Shown here: one piece after another, positions 9,643 through 18,965 of the stretch | Numbering within the stretch: position 1 is the first letter of the stretch | How the letters are laid out: every line of letters starts with the position of its first letter | Assembly: GCA_029838215.1 (NCBI GenBank) | Contig: JALGVI010000054.1 | Coordinates: forward strand, 1 to 19,822 | DNA length: 19,822 nucleotides | Source: Candidatus Helarchaeota archaeon | GTDB lineage: Archaea; Asgardarchaeota; Lokiarchaeia; Helarchaeales; RDOG01 | Direction of reading: 5' to 3' | Position numbers and translations under genes: made by a program | Notes under the pieces: generated by a model | Told to the model about the DNA's origin: nothing | Database searches by the model: none | What the model saw: the letters and a program-made list of their open reading frames with translations, nothing else

Positions 9643-10994
9643 ATCATTTCAAGCGGGTACTGTATATAATCATCGACGACGTTAGAAATGACCATCTACA
9701 CCAATTAATGAATGATGGAACGCTTCCTACACTACAGAAACTCTCTGAAAATGCCGCCGACGTGGAGCATTGCATTACGACCTTTCCTTCCGTCACGGTC
9801 CCTGCACACGTTTCCTTGCTAACAGGTGCATATGTCGATTCATTTCACATACCGAACATTAAATTCTATCAAAGAGAAAACGCCAAATACGTTAATTTTG
9901 CAGATAGCATTCAAGGATGGATGGCCCTGGATGAAATGATCCCTCCTGATGTAAAGACTATCTATGAATTGTTTGAAAACGAAGATTCTTTGGTAGTTTA
10001 TGAAGGCGTGTCAAGAGGGGCGACATTTCATTATGGATTTCAGGATGCCACGAATCTGTTTCGCCCAATCTCTAAAATTTTAAAAAAACACGTCCAAGAA
10101 CATGAGAACTCACTCCCCACGGTTTCCGTGCTTTGGTATTATCAAACAGATCCTGCAGTTCATACTCATGGTGCCCATTCCCGAACCTATCTACGGGAAA
10201 TTAAAAAGGTGGACCGAGATCTGGGCAAGATCATCGACCTGTTAAAAGAAATACGCCAATACGATGATACCCTTATTGTCATCACGTCAGATCACGGTAA
10301 TTATGCGGCACGAGAAAAATTAGACGTTGGTCAACTATTACAAAAATATGGATTAGAGCGTGATGTCGATTTTTTCGTGGATTTCGGTTCCGTTGGTCTA
10401 TTTTGGTTCACGACCGGTCCTGATCCAAGTCGCCCTCTTCGTCTTGCCGAGTTAAGAAAAAATGGCTCTAATAGTATAGATTTAATCAAAATCATCGGTT
10501 CGTTGAAGGGAATCGAACGGCTTTTTTACTATGATGAGAAAACAGGATTAATACACGGCTTTTTTGATGGAAAGGAAGGAACGATTGCCTGGAAGAATGG
10601 CAAAACGAGCATTGCAGGCGATGACATTTTCGAATATTCCGAAGATTCGCTGGCGAGTGGAATTAAAAAAGGAATTTTTTATGATTCTGATGAATGGCTA
10701 AAATACACCTACAAGTCCAAATTACCTCTTCTACCCGATCACTTGGCACGGCTCTTTCATAATAGGAATCGTCCCGACATCATAGCATGTACCGATCGGA
10801 AAACCGTATACCATCACTTATATTCTCATGACACGTACACGCAAGAATCAATGAACGTGCCGTTATTGCTTGCGGGGTCAAAGATGGTACCAAAGAAATT
10901 AAAGCATGCTCGAACCGTGGATGTTTTGCCCACGATCCTGCATTTATTGGGACGCGATGTTCCTGCTAACATGATCGGAAAGCCATTATTATAA
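9639..10994 (+). CDS. Alkaline phosphatase-superfamily nucleotide pyrophosphatase/phosphodiesterase (NPP type I)
   Basis: IIIDDVR metal Asp, TTFPSVTVPAHVSLLTG Thr nucleophile, TDPAVHTHG, ITSDHG, YSHD and RTVDVLPTILHLLG. It overlaps the previous stop through ATGA. Confidence 0.85.
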   Translation: MNHFKRVLYIIIDDVRNDHLHQLMNDGTLPTLQKLSENAADVEHCITTFPSVTVPAHVSLLTGAYVDSFHIPNIKFYQRENAKYVNFADSIQGWMALDEMIPPDVKTIYELFENEDSLVVYEGVSRGATFHYGFQDATNLFRPISKILKKHVQEHENSLPTVSVLWYYQTDPAVHTHGAHSRTYLREIKKVDRDLGKIIDLLKEIRQYDDTLIVITSDHGNYAAREKLDVGQLLQKYGLERDVDFFVDFGSVGLFWFTTGPDPSRPLRLAELRKNGSNSIDLIKIIGSLKGIERLFYYDEKTGLIHGFFDGKEGTIAWKNGKTSIAGDDIFEYSEDSLASGIKKGIFYDSDEWLKYTYKSKLPLLPDHLARLFHNRNRPDIIACTDRKTVYHHLYSHDTYTQESMNVPLLLAGSKMVPKKLKHARTVDVLPTILHLLGRDVPANMIGKPLL

Positions 10995-12155
10995 TAAGCC
11001 TAGCATCCCACTAATTCCCGCACGTGGCGTTTCAATGGCACCTTGTGGACAGCCCTCGGCACAACACAGACAATTGATGCAAGTTTGTCGATGAATTTTT
11101 GGATATTTATTGATGTCGAATGAAATGCTTTCTGTAGGACAAATTTTTATGCAATGACCGCATTTAATGCATTTATTCTGGCGGACTCGCGGGACGCGCT
11201 TTAACATTCGGTTGCCAATCGGCTGAAAAATCCCCAATGCCGACATCACTCTTGTCCCTGGAAAATTGATTTTCTGTTTGGGAATTATATTTTCGATTTT
11301 TTCTCCCAATATGTTTATCTGCTGCAAGTTTCCGATGCCCAATCCGCGGTCATGACATTCCCTGATAAATTTTATGTCCTCAAGTGGATTTAGACCGCCT
11401 ATTTTAACTGCAACGGCATCCAAGGCAACCATATCCCGAGAAGCAAGGATCAGTCCCAAGTTTATCATGCTTCCAAAGCTCGGGCCACCAGTTCCGTGCA
11501 TGGCTTGAATTGCATCCATTATGACAAGATTGTCCTTTTTTAAAACATCATGAACATAGCTAAATAAATCTGTTAGAACAATTGCAAACTTATTGGGGGT
11601 CGGACCATAAAGATGGCTCTTGCTCTTTGTCGTGCCTACTTGAATCCCCCAAAAATTCTTTACTGCTCCAGTGAATCGCGTGAGAAAGTGCGTCTTCCAC
11701 TTGCAAGCATTTATCACAAAATCTGCATCAACAAAGGCACGAGCGATCGCCGTTTTTTCGAGAAGCTTGAAATTTGGATTATCATCCTTCGTCACCAATA
11801 CAGGATTTTCATTAAAGTTTATCCATTTAACATCAGGCGCAAGCTCCGAGATAATATCGTAACCCGTTTGTCCTCCATCATACCTGACTTTTTCATATAT
11901 CTCCTTACTTGTTTTTCCTCCAGACATGGGTGAGTCTCCTATTATAGGTTGTCCTCCGTATTCAACGACAAGCCGTGCAATACTGCCGATCACTGAAGCA
12001 TCGGTAACGGCATTCCGATCGGCATTTAGGTTGTTCGGCTTGATCAAGACTTGCTTATTTTTTAAATCAACATCACCCAACAAGGTCACGGCTTTTCTGA
12101 TGGCTTCAAAAACGGATTCTTCCGCCCCTTTTTTTACAATAGAAACTGACGGCAA
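10989..12155 (-). CDS. DUF362 family protein with C-terminal 2x[4Fe-4S] ferredoxin domain
   Basis: VLIKPN, IIGDSP, VINACKWKTH..T.FTGAVKNFWG, VIMDAI.AM.G.GGP, ASRDMVALDAV, then CIKCGHCIKICP and CINCLCCAEGCP. Confidence 0.9.
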   Translation of the reverse strand: MPSVSIVKKGAEESVFEAIRKAVTLLGDVDLKNKQVLIKPNNLNADRNAVTDASVIGSIARLVVEYGGQPIIGDSPMSGGKTSKEIYEKVRYDGGQTGYDIISELAPDVKWINFNENPVLVTKDDNPNFKLLEKTAIARAFVDADFVINACKWKTHFLTRFTGAVKNFWGIQVGTTKSKSHLYGPTPNKFAIVLTDLFSYVHDVLKKDNLVIMDAIQAMHGTGGPSFGSMINLGLILASRDMVALDAVAVKIGGLNPLEDIKFIRECHDRGLGIGNLQQINILGEKIENIIPKQKINFPGTRVMSALGIFQPIGNRMLKRVPRVRQNKCIKCGHCIKICPTESISFDINKYPKIHRQTCINCLCCAEGCPQGAIETPRAGISGMLGLL

Positions 12156-12244
12156 TTAATTCATCTCAAATTCTTATTTTTATGTTTAAATTAAAATGAA
12201 CGATTATTCATAAACATGCCGTCTGAGTTTAGATTAATACTAAA

Positions 12245-12260
12245 TTCATCATTTGATGAA
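12245..12260. promoter_or_regulatory. Perfect inverted repeat TTCATCA-TT-TGATGAA, a candidate transcription-factor site
   Basis: 7-bp arms with a 2-bp spacer in the intergenic region upstream of the DUF362 gene. A 14/16 copy is at 3589-3604. Confidence 0.35.
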
Positions 12261-12325
12261 GAAGGATGAAAAAAATCAAAATTCAGGACGAAAATAAAGC
12301 CGTGCAAAATAAAATAGTAAAAAAA

Positions 12326-12574
12326 TTACCTGAACTTCAAATACAGATTCAAAGCCTCTTTTCTCATGACGTTCAGGTCAGCGTCATCGTTGGAAACAAA
12401 CAACTCCTTACGACCGTTTCTTTTCAGATCAAATGGTGCTTTTAGGGTATATTGAAAACTATTTGTTAAAAACGTGATTGCATTAAAAGAGATCTTCCTG
12501 TTCAATAATCTCTTGTAAAGCAAGTCGTAAATTTCCGGTACATCTTCCTTGATGATAACGCGCCTTTTCACCAT
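12326..12574 (-). CDS. Small hypothetical protein (82 aa)
   Basis: The only ORF over 60 aa in a 640-nt gap. ATG at 12574 with GAAGGA upstream, and protein-like composition (MVKRRVIIKEDVPEIYDLLYKRLL...). No recognisable family. Confidence 0.55.
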   Translation of the reverse strand: MVKRRVIIKEDVPEIYDLLYKRLLNRKISFNAITFLTNSFQYTLKAPFDLKRNGRKELFVSNDDADLNVMRKEALNLYLKFR

Positions 12575-12732
12575 CAATTCCTTCGTGAAGTGCTAAATTA
12601 ACCGATACAAGAACTTGCATTTTAACATATAATAAAAATCGTAATACTGAGATATTATCGGTAAGATTTTAAGAAATGGAATTATAAATTTTCTAGTGGC
12701 AAATAAATATTAGGATAGGACCGAGAGTATCT

Positions 12733-12742: not shown

Positions 12743-12798
12743 ATTAACTAAAAGGTGAAGGGATATCGGTCTGAAGATATGGCAGGACTTGATATTTG

Positions 12799-13704
12799 AT
12801 GAGCTTTTATGATGATTACGATTATCTCCTTAAAATCATCGTTGTAGGAGACGGTGCAGTAGGGAAAACAGCACTATCCGTGAGATTCACACAAGGGAAG
12901 TTTCAAGACGATTATAAGATGACAATCGGTGTTGATTTTGCTGTTAAGATGATGGATGTCGATGGAAAACGTATAAAATGTCAGATCTGGGATACGGGTG
13001 GTCAAGAACGCTTTTCGTATCTTCGTCCTCTTTATTATAGTGGCGCGGTAGGTGGACTTGTAGTTTTTGACAAGACGTATCGTCCGTCTTTCAACAATAT
13101 CCCAAAGTGGTTCCAAGAGGTACGTGATAATCGGGGTCCTGATATTCCTTTGGTTTTATGCGGTAATAAAGTTGATCTCCCAGATTGGCAAGTCGATACG
13201 CAAGAGGCCGTCAACTTAGGTCGTTCTTACAAGGCACCTTATCATGATGTTTCAGCAAAGTCAGGTCAATCCGTAGATGATGCATTTGTAACATTGGTGA
13301 AGATGGTCATAGATCCGGGTGTTGCGAGGACGATACTCGAGGAAAAGACGACCCGTGATGTAGCAGAACAATCGATTGTAATGTCAGAAAGTTACAATAA
13401 GTATAATAGTTTTGCAAATCAAGCAACGGCTTATCTTGAGGCAGGAAATGTTATAGAGGCTTTGAATTCACTCAAGAAGTCTCTTTATTGGGCTCGCGAT
13501 GTTCAATTTGAACCAGGCATTAAATGGTGTGAGGACCAGATTGCTTACATTCAGAAGTTTTTAAAGCAGGAGAAAGAGGCACAGCAGGTTCAACGAGTAA
13601 GTGAGTTTATTTACAGATGTCCCGGTTGCAACGTTTATTTTAAGGTCAATCAAGTGGGTCAATATACGTGTCCCGATTGTGGAAGTGTCTTAGAACGAAT
13701 ATGA
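12799..13704 (+). CDS. Rab-like small GTPase with C-terminal TPR-like helical hairpin and C4 zinc ribbon
   Basis: G1 GDGAVGKT, G2 MTIG, G3 WDTGGQ, G4 NKVD, G5 DVSAK. RabF-like IGVDF, KCQIW, RFSYL, YYSGA, LVVFDKT. ANQATAYLEAGNVIEALNSLKKSL is TPR-like. CPGC-x13-CPDC forms the zinc ribbon. Confidence 0.9.
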   Translation: MSFYDDYDYLLKIIVVGDGAVGKTALSVRFTQGKFQDDYKMTIGVDFAVKMMDVDGKRIKCQIWDTGGQERFSYLRPLYYSGAVGGLVVFDKTYRPSFNNIPKWFQEVRDNRGPDIPLVLCGNKVDLPDWQVDTQEAVNLGRSYKAPYHDVSAKSGQSVDDAFVTLVKMVIDPGVARTILEEKTTRDVAEQSIVMSESYNKYNSFANQATAYLEAGNVIEALNSLKKSLYWARDVQFEPGIKWCEDQIAYIQKFLKQEKEAQQVQRVSEFIYRCPGCNVYFKVNQVGQYTCPDCGSVLERI

Positions 13705-13761
13705 GTTCCTCTAGGTCGCCAACTAACAGATTTAACCTTGCCTTACCTTGAGGAGAGTATC

Positions 13762-14784
13762 ATGGAACTTTCTTCAGTCCTTAAGGGTGTTGTTTATTCA
13801 CAATTTGGAGAAATGGGACCTGAGGCTTATATTTGGTTTCCTCAGGATGGTACACTTGATTCTGCGATATTGGGCTTAGTAAGCTTGAAATCGATAACAA
13901 TTCTACAGGGTGAAGAAGGGCAAGTTCCGGAAGATGTTGCTGTTGTTCCTTTTCCTAAATATAGGATGAATTCTATCGTGAGTTTTTTTTCGCTTCCCGA
14001 TACTGAAGCTCGTGGCGGAGAGCGAGATGCGACGCTTTGTATTTTATTTTCGGACAAATTTTCAAGCATTATTTACAAGCATTTAGAATTATTCAAGGAA
14101 CAGATGAACACGATCTCAAAAGAAATAGTCAAACGAGAGATGGAAGGAGATTTGGCAGGAAGCACAGCATTAATTCAAGAATTCCATGCATCCTTATTGG
14201 AGAATTTGCGGAGCTTGCAAGAGGCTGAAGTAGAAGAACCAAAGAAAGCTGATTTCAAATATAAAGTGATCGTTGTTGGAGACCCTGCAGTTGGTAAGAC
14301 GACTTTACTCTTGAGATACGTGGATAATTGTTTTAAAGAAATCTACATTCCGACTGTCGGAGTTAATGTTAGTACGAAACAAGTTGATGTTGGAACTTCG
14401 AAAGGACAAAACATTAACGTGACATTAAATCTCTGGGATTTAGCAGGTCAAAAGAGTTTTCTGCACTTGCGAAGAATGTATCTTGAGGGCGCAAATGCCG
14501 CTATCATAGTATATGATAGCACGAGGTCTGAAACATTTCAAAACATAAAATCTTGGTTTGAGGAAGTGAATTCAGTCAATCCAAAGATTTTAGGATACAT
14601 AATTGGGAACAAGATCGACTTGTTGAAACAACGAAAGGTTTCAACGAAGCAAGGCAAGACTGTTGCAGATGATTTGGGTTTTAAATTTCTCGAAACAAGT
14701 GCTAAAACAGGAAAAAACATTCCCACTCTTTTCAAAGATATTTCACGATCGATTTTAACTAAATACAAAGCAATTGGTACTTGA
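13762..14784 (+). CDS. uDENN/longin-like domain fused to a C-terminal Rab-like small GTPase
   Basis: N-terminal VVYSQF.EMGP...WFP...FFSLPDTEARGGERDATLCILF. GTPase G1 GDPAVGKT, G2 IPTVG, G3 WDLAGQ, G4 NKID, G5 ETSAK. I chose the ATG at 13762 for the AGGAG SD at 13751. Confidence 0.8.
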   Translation: MELSSVLKGVVYSQFGEMGPEAYIWFPQDGTLDSAILGLVSLKSITILQGEEGQVPEDVAVVPFPKYRMNSIVSFFSLPDTEARGGERDATLCILFSDKFSSIIYKHLELFKEQMNTISKEIVKREMEGDLAGSTALIQEFHASLLENLRSLQEAEVEEPKKADFKYKVIVVGDPAVGKTTLLLRYVDNCFKEIYIPTVGVNVSTKQVDVGTSKGQNINVTLNLWDLAGQKSFLHLRRMYLEGANAAIIVYDSTRSETFQNIKSWFEEVNSVNPKILGYIIGNKIDLLKQRKVSTKQGKTVADDLGFKFLETSAKTGKNIPTLFKDISRSILTKYKAIGT

Positions 14785-14788
14785 TAAA

Positions 14789-16519
14789 ATGGAGTTGACT
14801 GGAAAACCATTCTTGATCATGAAAAAAACGACACGGCGGATGGTTGGTTCTGCAGCACAACGTTTTAACATATTAACGGCTTGCGTTATTGCAGAATTGA
14901 TTCGCACGACGCTGGGTCCATTTGGTTTTGATAAATTAATTATAGATCCCGTAAATGAGATTATCATCTCCAATGATGGCTCCACGATAATGAAAAATTT
15001 TGAAGTCCGTCATCCGATGGCTAGAATTCTCGATAAATTGGTTCGTTCAATGGACGATACTGTTGGAGATGGTTCAAAAACAGCCTTAATTCTTGTCGGT
15101 GAACTTTTAAAAAAGGCACAGATTCAACTCATGGATGAAGGCGTGCATCCTTCAAGCATAATTGATGGTTTTGAGAAAGTTCTTGAATTTTTCATTGAAG
15201 AATCAGAAAAAATTGGGATGACCATCAATCCAAATGACGATGTTCTACTAAAAAAAGTTGCATTAACATCCATTGGTGGACGATTCGGACCAAAGGTCGA
15301 AGAGAAACTCGCAAGCATTGCGCTTCAGGCAATCCGCTATATCTCCGAAGAAAAAGACGGACAACTTCGCATTGATGTTAAAAACAACATCAACATCGTT
15401 GCGGTACGCGGCAAAAGCTTGAGTGAATCAGAAGTTATTGACGGAATGGCGATTGTTAAAGAACTGGTATCTCCCGAGTTACCGAAAAGAATCGTGGATG
15501 CTCGGATTGCTTTAATTGAACCGTCAATTGAGCATAAATTGTTTAAAATAGCCGATTCAAAGAATGTTCACTTGAAAATGACGGGTATTGCCGAGCAAAG
15601 ACAATTTAGGGACGAAGAATATCGAATATTAAAGGAAAAAGTCGAAAAAATCATTCAATCTGGTGCTAACGTGGTTTTTGCCCGACGAGAACTCCATGAA
15701 AAAATTCGTCCTTACTTGCGAAAAGCCAATATCTTGGCAGCAAGTTGGGTTCGGGGTTGGGATATGGAGAAAATTGCGCGGGCAACAGGTGCCAAGATCA
15801 TCAAGAACCTCGATTATTTAACACCTGAAGCATTAGGACACGCAGAAATCGTGGAAGAACGCGAACTAGCGCATAAAAATATCATTTTTATTCGCGGATG
15901 CAAGAATCCAAAGGCTGTTACCATTTTGCTTAGGGCAGGAATCGAACACGTGCTTTACGAAAGTGAACGTCGCTTGTACGATGCCATGTATGCAATTCGG
16001 GACGTGCTTTTGAAGGGAAAAATCGTTGGTGGAGGAGGTGCTTTTGAAATGGCACTTTCTAAAAGAATCCTCGAATACTCCCGGCAATTCTCGGGACGTG
16101 AACAGCTCGCCATTCAGACTTTTGCTCGTTGCTTGGAAATCATACCATTTACTCTCGCAGAAAGTGCAGGTCTCAATCCATTGGATGTGATAACTCGGCT
16201 GCGCCAAATTCATACTTCTGATAACGAAAACGCTCAATGGTATGGCGTGGATTTGGAAAACACCCTGCCTAAAAACATGTTAGAAGCTGGAATATACGAT
16301 CCGCTTTCTGTCAAGATCCAAGCAATTGGTGCAGCAACTGAAGTTGCTCTCATCATTCTTAGCATTGATGATGTCTTACATGCAAAACCTGCGGAGTACG
16401 AAAAAACCATTGAAGAAGAAGAATATGAAGAGGAAATGAAACAAAAAATGGCAGACATCAAGGAGCAAATACTCAGATCTCGCTCACCAACGAGAAGATT
16501 TACCTCTCCTCGCAAGTAG
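14789..16519 (+). CDS. Divergent group II chaperonin (thermosome/CCT-like) subunit
   Basis: AQRFNI...IRTTLGPFGFDK, SNDGSTI, HPMAR, VGDGSKTA, VIDGMAI, DARIALI, IARATGA, GCKNPKAVTILLRAG, ERRLYDA, VGGGGAFE, LAESAGLNP, GIYDPLSVK.QAI..ATEVA..ILSIDD. The ATG at 14789 lies 4 nt after the previous stop. Confidence 0.9.
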   Translation: MELTGKPFLIMKKTTRRMVGSAAQRFNILTACVIAELIRTTLGPFGFDKLIIDPVNEIIISNDGSTIMKNFEVRHPMARILDKLVRSMDDTVGDGSKTALILVGELLKKAQIQLMDEGVHPSSIIDGFEKVLEFFIEESEKIGMTINPNDDVLLKKVALTSIGGRFGPKVEEKLASIALQAIRYISEEKDGQLRIDVKNNINIVAVRGKSLSESEVIDGMAIVKELVSPELPKRIVDARIALIEPSIEHKLFKIADSKNVHLKMTGIAEQRQFRDEEYRILKEKVEKIIQSGANVVFARRELHEKIRPYLRKANILAASWVRGWDMEKIARATGAKIIKNLDYLTPEALGHAEIVEERELAHKNIIFIRGCKNPKAVTILLRAGIEHVLYESERRLYDAMYAIRDVLLKGKIVGGGGAFEMALSKRILEYSRQFSGREQLAIQTFARCLEIIPFTLAESAGLNPLDVITRLRQIHTSDNENAQWYGVDLENTLPKNMLEAGIYDPLSVKIQAIGAATEVALIILSIDDVLHAKPAEYEKTIEEEEYEEEMKQKMADIKEQILRSRSPTRRFTSPRK

Positions 16520-16530
16520 GTGTGTCTTTA

Positions 16531-17370
16531 ATGAAATATGCAATTAGTAATTGGATATACGGTTCTGAACCGCTTAGTAAGTCAATTGAACGGTTAATCC
16601 GGTATGATTATGATGGAATCGAAATTAAAGGAACCCCAGAGGAATATGACCTAAACCAAGTAAAGGATTTATTGTCCACGACAAAACTAAAAGTATCTTC
16701 GGTTTGTGGCATGTGGCCGTGGGATGCAAATAATCACATGAATAGTCATGACCTTGCAAATCCCGATCCAAAAGTCCGTGATCACGCCTTGGAATATGTT
16801 GAAAGATGTCTGGAATTCGGTAATAGCTTGGGTGCAAAATGCATGGTCGTAGTAGTAGGTGGTTGTGGCAAGACGATGCAATTACATGAGAAAGAGTGGG
16901 AATACGGCGTTGAAAACGTGAAAAAAGCGGCAAAAAAAGCACGAGATACAGGAGTGACGATAGCTATCGAACCGATCAACCGCTATGAGCTCTTCCTAAT
17001 GAATAATGTCGAACAAGGCTTGAGATTCGTCCAAGAGGTAAATGCAGAATCGGTGAAATTAATGCTTGATACCTTTCACATGAATATTGAAGAGGCGGAT
17101 CTTCCTGCGGCAATCCGGAAGGCGTCATCATCTCTCGTGCATCTACACGTGGCAGATAGCAACCGGCAGTCTGTTGGGCGGGGACATATTGACTTTAAAG
17201 GAATAATGCGGTCCTTGAAAGAAATCGAATTCTCCGGATATTTAGCGATGGAACCCTTACCTCCAACTTCAGCAAATGTATACGATCTTTCGCAATTAAA
17301 TCCTCACCTTCTCGATCAATATGCCGAAGAATGCATCGCTCAACTCAGGTTTTTTGAGAAAACTATTTAA
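16531..17370 (+). CDS. Sugar phosphate isomerase/epimerase, D-psicose/D-tagatose 3-epimerase-like (TIM barrel)
   Basis: YDGIEI, AIEPINRYE, MLDTFHMNIEE, HLHVADSNR...GRGHIDF and YLAME, with the metal ligands E, D, H, E present. I chose the ATG at 16531 for the AGGTG SD overlapping the previous stop. Confidence 0.9.
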   Translation: MKYAISNWIYGSEPLSKSIERLIRYDYDGIEIKGTPEEYDLNQVKDLLSTTKLKVSSVCGMWPWDANNHMNSHDLANPDPKVRDHALEYVERCLEFGNSLGAKCMVVVVGGCGKTMQLHEKEWEYGVENVKKAAKKARDTGVTIAIEPINRYELFLMNNVEQGLRFVQEVNAESVKLMLDTFHMNIEEADLPAAIRKASSSLVHLHVADSNRQSVGRGHIDFKGIMRSLKEIEFSGYLAMEPLPPTSANVYDLSQLNPHLLDQYAEECIAQLRFFEKTI

Positions 17371-17507: not shown

Positions 17508-18965
17508 ATGGAAGAATACAAAAAGTTATATGGTTTTGCAGTCAAGGAATACAAGGAAAAGAAGCCAAAGAACATTCAAGGTTATATGATCAAGAAAAGA
17601 AGTATTTTTTCGAAGGGTTTTTCGCCTTCTTTTCAATTACAATCCCAATTAACCCTTCAGATTTCATATTTAATCATCGTGAACTATGGCTCTACCGTTC
17701 GCGTGTATTATTTTTCTTCCGAATTACTTCAATTAGGGGCAAAAAATCTGAATTCTAAAGAATTCATGAAGATGATGAAAAAAATCAAAAAATCTGTTAA
17801 AAAAATCTTCGAAGTCCCGCATAAGACGAAAGAACAATTGATAGAGGAAAAACGCACGGCATATTCTAAGATAATTTCCCATCTAAAGCATCTACGTTTG
17901 GACTTCAAGGAATTGCAGGAAAAATTCGATCGAGAACATAAGGCGATTCGAAAAAAAACAGGCTTGAAAGGAAAATTGAAAACGGTCACTCTTACAGACA
18001 AAAAATTAACGAATATAAAACGATTTGGAGTAATGATAAAGGAAAGTTACCTATATATATCACTTTATTGTTTGAATTCGAAATATCTCAATATTATAGT
18101 CTTTCGAGAAATAATTCTCTCATTACTACCAGGCTGGATCGATGATTCGTTAAAAATTGACCTTGCATTTTTAGGCACCTGCTGCCTGATATCAGCTACT
18201 GAACGTGATTTGCTCCTTGAAAAATGGTCGCCACCGGGTGATCCAAATTTGATCCGTATGCTTGATGGAGAAAAACTCGTTCCAATAATTGGCTTTCTTG
18301 CATATCTCAATAAATATATTGACATACCATCACTTACTGAAGAAGAAACCAAAATATTATTTAGATTAATGCTTGAGGAACATTCTCGTGGACACGCATG
18401 GATGGCAGAACGCTTTTTTTCTAATCTCGTCCCAGATAATGAAATAACTCGCGATATCTTTATTGCAAAGCGGCTGCTTTTTAGATTTTTAAGTGGAGAA
18501 CATGTAGAAGCAAATCAAATTAAATTTGGGACTTTCAGCAAGCCGTGTCTATCCTTAGCCACGCGAAAATTATTCGATTTTTATGAAACCTATCAAAGAT
18601 TAGAAAAGATTCCAAGAGGGTTGAATCATCTCATCCAAGACGTGTTGAAAAAGATAAATCCTGTCCAAATAACTAGGAATTTCACTCGAAAAGACAAATC
18701 GTGGATAGAATTATCAATTATAATTTCAAATAATTCCGACTTGATTCTTGCTCCAAAAAAAATTAGAGATTCAAGCTATTCAGGACTTGACGTCAAGGGA
18801 GATTTAAATTTCAAAAAACTCTATCCCGAATCAGTCATGGAGTTAAAAATTCAAGTAAATTTACCAGAAGGGCAAAGTTTTACTCTTTCCCCAATTCAAC
18901 TAACATTGATTGATGATTTTAAAAATGAATATCACGTCAAGGTTCCATCCATGATGATTCATTAA
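17508..18965 (+). CDS. Hypothetical multidomain protein: basic N-terminal region, helical core, C-terminal Ig-like beta-sandwich
   Basis: 485 aa uninterrupted ORF. The last ~98 aa (ITRNF...IELSIIISNNSD...KIRD...KKLYPESVMELKIQV...FTLSPIQLTLIDDFKNEY) have the alternating pattern of DUF11/CARDB/TRAP-beta-like Ig folds. No signal peptide or TM helix is evident. Confidence 0.65.
   Translation: MEEYKKLYGFAVKEYKEKKPKNIQGYMIKKRSIFSKGFSPSFQLQSQLTLQISYLIIVNYGSTVRVYYFSSELLQLGAKNLNSKEFMKMMKKIKKSVKKIFEVPHKTKEQLIEEKRTAYSKIISHLKHLRLDFKELQEKFDREHKAIRKKTGLKGKLKTVTLTDKKLTNIKRFGVMIKESYLYISLYCLNSKYLNIIVFREIILSLLPGWIDDSLKIDLAFLGTCCLISATERDLLLEKWSPPGDPNLIRMLDGEKLVPIIGFLAYLNKYIDIPSLTEEETKILFRLMLEEHSRGHAWMAERFFSNLVPDNEITRDIFIAKRLLFRFLSGEHVEANQIKFGTFSKPCLSLATRKLFDFYETYQRLEKIPRGLNHLIQDVLKKINPVQITRNFTRKDKSWIELSIIISNNSDLILAPKKIRDSSYSGLDVKGDLNFKKLYPESVMELKIQVNLPEGQSFTLSPIQLTLIDDFKNEYHVKVPSMMIH

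Follow-up and report, generated by a model that had tools for sequence, protein, structure and literature searches.

A divergent group II chaperonin gene in a Helarchaeota genome

We analyzed a 19,822-nt stretch of DNA from a Candidatus Helarchaeota archaeon (assembly GCA_029838215.1, contig JALGVI010000054.1, forward strand; hereafter the window) that carries at 14789..16519 (+) a gene for a divergent group II chaperonin. The encoded protein, P0001, is 576 amino acids (aa) long and is assigned by profile matches and an AlphaFold2 (AF2) model as a fourth thermosome paralog, here termed K-type. Its open reading frame (ORF) is unbroken, and the ATG at 14789 agrees with the aligned N-termini of orthologs. 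Pfam Cpn60_TCP1 (PF00118) matches P0001 over the full length of the profile (476.5 bits, positions 1-490), and the best NCBIfam models are thermosome_alpha (NF041082; cut-off 450) with 533 bits and thermosome beta with 524 bits. P0001 stays below the cut-off of the archaeal thermosome subfamily model TIGR02339 (thermosome_arch; 503 bits, cut-off 671) and misses every cut-off for the eukaryotic chaperonin CCT by far, the best of these profiles being CCT eta (365 bits, cut-off 669). Among solved structures, archaeal thermosomes come nearest, Thermococcus KS-1 thermosome alpha among them, at ~43% identity. The AF2 model, built on 88 sequences, has a predicted local distance difference test score (pLDDT) of 86.5, and its top Foldseek match is 1q3s_A with a template-modeling (TM) score of 0.95 and a root-mean-square deviation of 2.5 Å over 525 columns. 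P0001 is a full-length group II chaperonin with a three-domain fold and a built-in helical lid. In the model the equatorial domain is thermosome-like throughout, down to the terminal strands that serve ring contacts. A preliminary description of this DNA had proposed a remodeled apical domain, and this claim survives in part: surface residues and a short, low-confidence lid insertion are changed, but the predicted fold is canonical for thermosomes, apical domain included.

One set of changes in P0001 maps to the nucleotide pocket. The P-loop (aa 93-98; 15065..15082, +) reads GDGSKT and does not match the canonical GDGTT[TS], with Lys97 standing in place of the middle threonine that is equivalent to GroEL Thr90. 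Nucleotide loop A (aa 43-49; 14915..14935, +) reads GPFGFDK, which keeps the Gly-Pro pair and exchanges the canonical Lys/Arg and Met each for Phe, and an arginine occupies the position of the canonical lysine in the nucleotide-sensing loop. The motif NDGSTI (14972..14989, +) keeps the first catalytic aspartate, Asp63 (equivalent to GroEL D52 and CCT5 D73), and is followed in the sequence by HPMAR (15011..15025, +). RRLYDA (15968..15985, +) keeps the catalytic Asp398 (equivalent to GroEL D398 and Mm-cpn D386), and the nucleotide-binding glycine motif GGGGA is kept at 16028..16042 (+). P0001 thus retains the Gly-Pro loop, Asp63, the Mg-binding Asp94, Asp398, the GGG motif and IDD. In simulations of GroEL, Thr89 and Thr91 bond the phosphates strongly and the middle Thr90 only weakly (PMC3053311); because Thr90 is the equivalent of Lys97, nucleotide binding is likely to survive the lysine change, and P0001 likely still binds nucleotide.

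A second set of changes lies on the apical surface and at the C-terminus. The tip of the helical protrusion that forms the lid, EHKLFKIADSKNVHLKMTG (15530..15586, +), is four residues longer in alignment than the canonical tip, in agreement with the slight extension suspected earlier. This insertion is common to P0001, its relative P0002 and the sister proteins P0009-P0013 described below, and in the model lid-tip residues 252-263 have a pLDDT below 50. Further along the apical domain, RRELHEKIRPYLRKA (15683..15727, +) spans the end of a strand and helix 11 (modeled helix 304-312) and replaces the canonical QKGIDDLAQHYLAK. RRELH (aa 299-303) thereby stands at the position of canonical CQKGIDD, and SWV (aa 319-321) at that of RRV. 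The latter opens a clade-specific, Trp-rich motif, SWVRGWD (15743..15763, +), that replaces RRVKKSD and in which V321, G323 and W324 are nearly invariant among the relatives of P0001. GDGSKT, GPFGFDK, HPMAR, RRELH, SWV, RRLYDA and GGGGA all lie where the preliminary description had located them. The apical substrate-binding site of CCT is formed by helix 11 (CCT5: helix 10) plus the proximal loop (PMC5473854), so the K-type clade would have its own version of a client-contact surface. The C-terminal tail (16388..16516, +) is likewise clade-specific and consists of a PAEYE..EEEE stretch followed by a charged helix, modeled at 541-564. Within the clade, tail residues P534, E536, E538 and E542-544 show no or almost no variation, and the C-termini of canonical paralogs are Gly/Met/Pro-rich tails.

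An order-specific clade and a recurrent P-loop lysine

The source genome (3.6 Mb, 94% complete) holds four Cpn60_TCP1 genes. The three other paralogs (a tandem pair on contig C115, a single gene on contig C112) all combine GDGTTT or GDGTTS with GP(K/R)G; they score 563-622 bits on Cpn60_TCP1 and 674-767 bits on the thermosome subfamily model, compared with 476 and 503 for P0001. P0001 is not the main thermosome of this genome, as had been surmised before the canonical copies were counted. The tandem pair (C115:16151-19298) is alpha/beta-like, with both genes on the same strand ~200 nt apart, and a pair of the same kind occurs on contig C172 of a second genome of the order, G297. That genome additionally encodes a fifth, very divergent paralog, P0124 (L047:1378-3087, −; 377 bits), which sits on a very long branch, reads GDGTKS in the P-loop, keeps GPKGLNK and has serine for the catalytic aspartate.

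Close relatives of P0001 share its altered P-loop. Proteins P0002-P0020 and P0034 (44-75% identity, mostly labeled Helarchaeota) all carry GDG[ST]KT or GD[ST]TKT, and the ~100 canonical thermosomes returned by the same search all carry GDGTT[TS]. In a 20-member alignment of this K-type clade, G93, D94, K97 and T98 are invariant down to 44% identity, and 90 columns are invariant across the 20 sequences. The invariance of K97 and T98, together with that of D94, residues around D63 and many clade-specific residues, indicates that the gene is under constraint; GDGSKT, which might have been single-genome drift or error, is real. None of the 19 clade members with a readable loop A has Lys or Arg at the GPxG position. 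Clade-wide, the equatorial domain also has IIDPV, VRHP and LVR, and LYE-ERR stands for VDE-ERA, RR(E/D) with an altered helix 11 for QKGIDD-LAQHYLAK, and WV(R/K)GW(D/E) for RRVKKSD. We placed the clade with a careful tree (IQ-TREE, LG+C20+F+G4 by posterior mean site frequency (PMSF), 40 rows), in which CCT is represented by its epsilon and delta families (two of eight) and no BBS chaperonin-like protein is among the rows. Within this sample the K-type clade has support of 100/100. A 100%-supported branch separates it from all sampled canonical archaeal thermosomes. Clade members occur in 3 of 300 Asgard species genomes, all of this order and with one copy each.

A sister subclade, P0009-P0013, provides a natural view of what the gene can do without. 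These proteins are 52-54% identical to P0001 and occupy the same position in the same string of genes, and they have lost the P-loop glycine (GD[TS]TKT), changed NDG to N[NH]G and replaced Asp398 with Asn. The conservation of the ortholog despite loss of both catalytic aspartates suggests that something other than ATP hydrolysis maintains the gene, and hydrolysis by the K-type subunit seems dispensable for its retention. The view of P0001 as a specialized paralog with an altered nucleotide pocket is strengthened both by the conservation of its changes and by these sisters without either catalytic Asp or the P-loop Gly. For two of them, P0013 and P0009 (L038:7001-8671 and L040:7001-8665), the conserved gene follows three GTPase genes at a distance of 4 nt, and both are natural pseudo-ATPase orthologs.

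We searched the clade profile against 1.84 billion representative proteins and kept the best 150 matches to determine how often the lysine occurs elsewhere. Across 158 rows the P-loop column holds Thr in 94, Lys in 43, Ile in 10, Ala in 4 and Val in 3; Lys is by far the commonest non-Thr residue among the divergent group II chaperonins of this sample, which is biased toward Lys-type proteins because the query profile is itself Lys-type. The lysine state needs 13-17 changes on the trees, at least 7 of them forced by well-supported branches, and Thr-to-Lys replacement is clearly a repeated event in divergent group II chaperonin paralogs, as judged from these reconstructions. Lys-type proteins include a Hodarchaeota thermosome paralog and tandem-fused double chaperonins, one of them from Freyarchaeota. 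These fusions, P0125 (1057 aa, labeled Freyarchaeota at NCBI) and P0128 (1047 aa), each contain two complete Cpn60_TCP1 units that are placed apart in the tree; all halves are Lys-type (GDGTKT/GDGTKA and GDGSKS/GDGAKT), and in neither protein does the second half have the catalytic Asp. In raw counts a catalytic Asp is lost in 20 of 43 Lys-type and 21 of 94 Thr-type rows. A charge swap that pairs the gain of Lys97 with loss of the GPxG Lys/Arg is retained as no more than a minor idea: raw counts lean toward it (26/43 and 30/94), but independent-pair tests are powerless, and exceptions include P0124, L012 and L016.

Neighboring GTPase genes

Directly upstream of the chaperonin gene lie two genes for small GTPases. 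The first, G1 (12796..13704, +), encodes a Rab-like GTPase with a C-terminal zinc ribbon (Pfam Ras, Zn_Ribbon_TF), and the second, G2 (13738..14784, +), encodes a fusion of a folliculin-type longin domain with a Ras/Rab-like GTPase (Pfam Ras, Folliculin) and ends 4 nt before the chaperonin start codon. A divergently oriented DUF362/4Fe-4S gene with an 83-aa ORF (10989..12577, −) bounds the syntenic block. The order DUF362 (−), small ORF (−), Rab-like GTPase, longin-GTPase(s), chaperonin is kept in the window and on the contigs of P0002, P0009 and P0013, and G2 orthologs are equally placed in loci L035, L038 and L040. Between the longin-GTPase and the chaperonin lie 4 nt in three loci (the window, L038 and L040) and 70 nt in the fourth, L035. 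Across the four syntenic loci G1 is more conserved (orthologs 67-81% identical) than the chaperonin (52-75%). With only ~52 Ras-family genes in the 3.6-Mb genome, two directly upstream are unlikely to be there by chance; the four loci are mutually related and so do not count as independent observations. Adjacency to GTPase genes was rejected as a clade-wide rule, being absent in L037, L045 and L049. A complex prediction for P0001 residues 14-536 with the upstream longin-GTPase, both supplied as alignments, returned a score of 0.00, to which we give no weight either way.

Downstream of the chaperonin gene the window carries a xylose-isomerase-like TIM barrel gene (Pfam AP_endonuc_2; 16522..17370, +), which is shared with the closest relative only, other genes standing at this place in L038 and L040. 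It is followed by a 485-aa ORF (17508-18965, +) without a Pfam match. Among the deeper relatives, a leucine-rich-repeat protein is encoded directly upstream of the P0006 chaperonin in L037, and ~1.7 kb upstream of the same chaperonin lies a called gene of 12,788 residues (L037:1-5319, −) for which no Pfam hit is recorded. In L045 (genome G240), the gene that immediately precedes the Lys-type chaperonin (3-908, +) matches the DnaJ CXXCXGXG zinc finger weakly, below threshold, and may be co-chaperone-like.

Relationship to CCT and BBS chaperonins and interpretation

The preliminary description had suggested that P0001 might prefigure the eukaryotic CCT-derived BBS chaperonins or CCT subunits. 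The three representatives used for comparison are true CCT subunits (two epsilon, 902-905 bits; one delta, 908 bits), and in the careful tree they group with the archaeal protein P0131 (88/44), with the K-type clade elsewhere on a poorly resolved backbone. Forcing the K-type clade and CCT together costs 24.7 log-likelihood units (lnL) with an approximately unbiased test value (p-AU) of 0.068, so that the grouping is disfavored and not formally rejected. Quick-search trees and AU tests that seemed to favor the grouping were discarded, as the careful tree is 35 lnL better; their apparent support arose because the quick search missed better trees, and, both lineages being long branches, any mutual attraction between them is suspect. 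The best CCT and thermosome scores are 365 and 533 bits for P0001, compared with 509 and 808 bits for a canonical paralog; CCT scores drop in step with thermosome scores, so P0001 has no special affinity to CCT. In a 70-row quick tree, P0131, P0134, P0143, P0159, P0182, P0201 and P0263 group with CCT epsilon/delta with 96% support; several of these archaeal sequences are Lys-type, and they may be thermosome paralogs of the Heimdall group.

BBS chaperonin-like proteins are eukaryote-specific derivatives of CCT. The preliminary description proposed for human BBS10 the motifs GDGAKT, with Lys at the same position as in P0001, and HPIAR where P0001 has HPMAR. BBS-type insertions in the intermediate and equatorial domains are absent from P0001, which aligns with thermosomes end to end with the four-residue lid extension as its sole insertion. 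One report describes substitutions in BBS10 that are unusual for positions that bind phosphate (PMC2846930); in another the BBS10 hydrolysis motif is considered conserved, and BBS chaperonin-like proteins are reported not to form CCT-like oligomers (PMC5534436). Literature searches for the strings GDGAKT, GDGTKT and GDGSKT linked them to no chaperonin, and searches that paired BBS10 with GDGTT or asked for thermosome paralogs in Asgard archaea returned nothing relevant. Given the repeated origin of the lysine, any likeness to BBS10 is to be expected as convergence, and for P0001 convergence is most likely the explanation in place of ancestry. The idea that P0001 prefigures BBS or CCT is not supported, given a clade found in one Asgard order only, at least seven origins of the lysine and the placement of CCT epsilon/delta elsewhere in the tree; on the terms of the preliminary description itself, the resemblance to BBS10 is convergent at most.

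We consider it probable that P0001 belongs to a lineage-specific, fast-evolving fourth thermosome paralog with an altered nucleotide pocket, in which ATP hydrolysis is attenuated or unneeded, which has a specialized, client-selective role and whose BBS10 likeness is convergent; judging from its place behind two Rab-like GTPase genes in an operon-like string, P0001 is probably a specialized subunit or a private helper. Under this model the K-type paralog would have arisen within the Helarchaeota order while retaining the chaperonin fold and the Mg-ATP-binding residues. Its pocket would have been reshaped by gain of the P-loop Lys, loss of the GP(K/R)G Lys/Arg and an Arg for the nucleotide-sensing-loop Lys, such that nucleotide is probably still bound while hydrolysis by the K-type subunit is weakened or not required. 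The new helix-11 surface, the Trp-rich motif and the acidic tail would make the chaperonin client-selective, and the protein could act as a minority subunit within rings of the canonical paralogs or in a private assembly. In its subclade it may be co-expressed with the Rab-like GTPase and the longin-GTPase fusion, which it may serve. What the data show is the sequence with its fold and conservation, the number of paralogs, the synteny and the recurrence of the lysine; binding of ATP, weak hydrolysis, the oligomeric state and the clients are inferred. Several observations weigh against this interpretation. All catalytic residues are kept in P0001, which could therefore be a fully active ATPase, and the association between the P-loop lysine and loss of the catalytic Asp finds no phylogenetically independent support. 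The origin of the clade among thermosomes is read from a poorly resolved backbone (support 63/93). The GTPase linkage is limited to P0001/P0002 and P0009-P0013, and deeper clade members neighbor a leucine-rich-repeat protein, a DnaJ-like zinc-finger protein or a nitroreductase, so the linkage is a feature of the subclade and not of all Lys-type chaperonins.

Other explanations account for part of these data. In eukaryotes, BBS6, BBS10 and BBS12 act with CCT as assembly factors that build small-GTPase-linked trafficking complexes, and by analogy the K-type chaperonin could be a dedicated partner of its co-encoded GTPases, an independent archaeal counterpart in which the lysine locks or retunes the nucleotide state for client holding; we regard this extension as doubtful. 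A scheme that keeps the enzyme fully active would have the charge of Lys97 replace the K+ cation, yielding K+-independent or retuned hydrolysis with loss of the GP(K/R)G charge as compensation. It draws on the K+ dependence of GroEL and Mm-cpn, whose cation site lies between the alpha and gamma phosphates, and on the Lys/Arg fingers that substitute for K+ in other NTPases (PMC6310460), as well as on the intact catalytic and Mg/ATP-binding residues of P0001, the absence of a GPxG Lys/Arg from Helarchaeota clade members with a readable loop, and the recurrence of Lys, not of random residues, at the P-loop column. We judge it unlikely, as the swap of charges is imperfect (P0124 and 17/43 Lys-type rows keep the GPxG Lys/Arg, and some Thr-type rows are without it) and a catalytic Asp is missing from roughly one in two Lys-type proteins, those of the syntenic sister subclade among them, which fits relaxed catalysis better than tuned catalysis.

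A departure from rings altogether appears quite unlikely. Here P0001 would work as a monomer or in a small complex, as scaffold or assembly factor for the Rab-like and longin GTPases encoded beside it, like BBS6/10/12 in BBSome assembly, a proposal consistent with the conserved GTPase operon (last spacer 4 nt in 3 of 4 loci), the catalytically dead sister subclade, the altered apical surface and new conserved tail, and the reported failure of BBS chaperonin-like proteins to make CCT-like oligomers (PMC5534436). Yet the equatorial domain of P0001, with its ring-contact terminal strands, is modeled as that of a thermosome and has no BBS-type insertions, and deeper clade members lack the GTPase linkage. 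That the clade represents an old paralog of Asgard archaea with a specific relationship to the stem of eukaryotic CCT, and hence of BBS, and has survived in Helarchaeota alone, is highly improbable. The p-AU of 0.068 and the fully supported branch that sets the clade outside all sampled canonical archaeal thermosomes leave some room for it; the careful maximum-likelihood tree, however, puts CCT with P0131 and apart from the clade, the constrained tree is 24.7 lnL worse, both lineages are long branches, the clade is confined to one order, CCT scores fall with thermosome scores, the lysine arose repeatedly, and the comparison covers no BBS sequence and two of eight CCT families. Family-profile scores lower than those of the paralogs might suggest a duplicate in decay or an error of sequencing or assembly, but this explanation has virtually no chance of being correct and is already refuted by the conservation data: the 576-aa ORF is intact, the same motif recurs in independent assemblies, 90 columns are invariant over 20 sequences, and the predicted fold is confident.

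Under the favored reading, that of a specialized order-specific paralog, the locus bears on how chaperonin subunits come to divide their labor. The function of eukaryotic CCT rests on eight paralogs that differ in ATP use and substrate surface. For the beginnings of such a division, this Asgard lineage offers a natural series of stages: three canonical subunits, a fourth with a changed phosphate loop and a new helix-11 surface, and a sister gene without catalysis. The order-specific K-type paralog combines an invariant P-loop Lys with a helix-11 surface and a tail that are peculiar to it. The recurrence of Thr-to-Lys change, including in tandem-fused double chaperonins, appears to mark a favored route in subunit specialization, and the Rab-like/longin GTPase operon supplies candidate clients in a group of organisms with many small GTPases.

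Compared with archaeal thermosomes (1Q3S, Mm-cpn 3RUS and Thermoplasma acidophilum 1A6D), P0001 is alike in its domains and lid (TM 0.95, 43% identity) and likewise keeps the Gly-Pro loop, Asp63, Asp94, Asp398, GGG and IDD. Unlike canonical thermosomes, it has a P-loop Lys, GPFGFDK for GPKGMDK, an altered helix 11 with WVRGW, four extra lid-tip residues and an acidic PAEYE..EEEE tail in place of a Gly/Met tail; it also falls below the TIGR02339 cut-off and is encoded with GTPase genes and not with other subunits. With BBS10, BBS6 and BBS12 it shares the character of a divergent group II paralog with unusual substitutions at phosphate-binding positions (PMC2846930) and, for P0001 by analogy only, a link to small-GTPase-related trafficking machinery. 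It differs from them in having no BBS-type insertions and a Lys of many independent origins, and in that the BBS proteins are eukaryote-specific. From eukaryotic CCT/TRiC it is set apart by scores below the CCT cut-offs, a position outside the epsilon/delta clade and confinement to one Asgard order. What it has in common with CCT/TRiC, whose subunits use ATP unequally, is the logic of subunit specialization, with several chaperonin paralogs in one genome that have diverged in the nucleotide pocket and in the helix-11 surface (PMC5473854).

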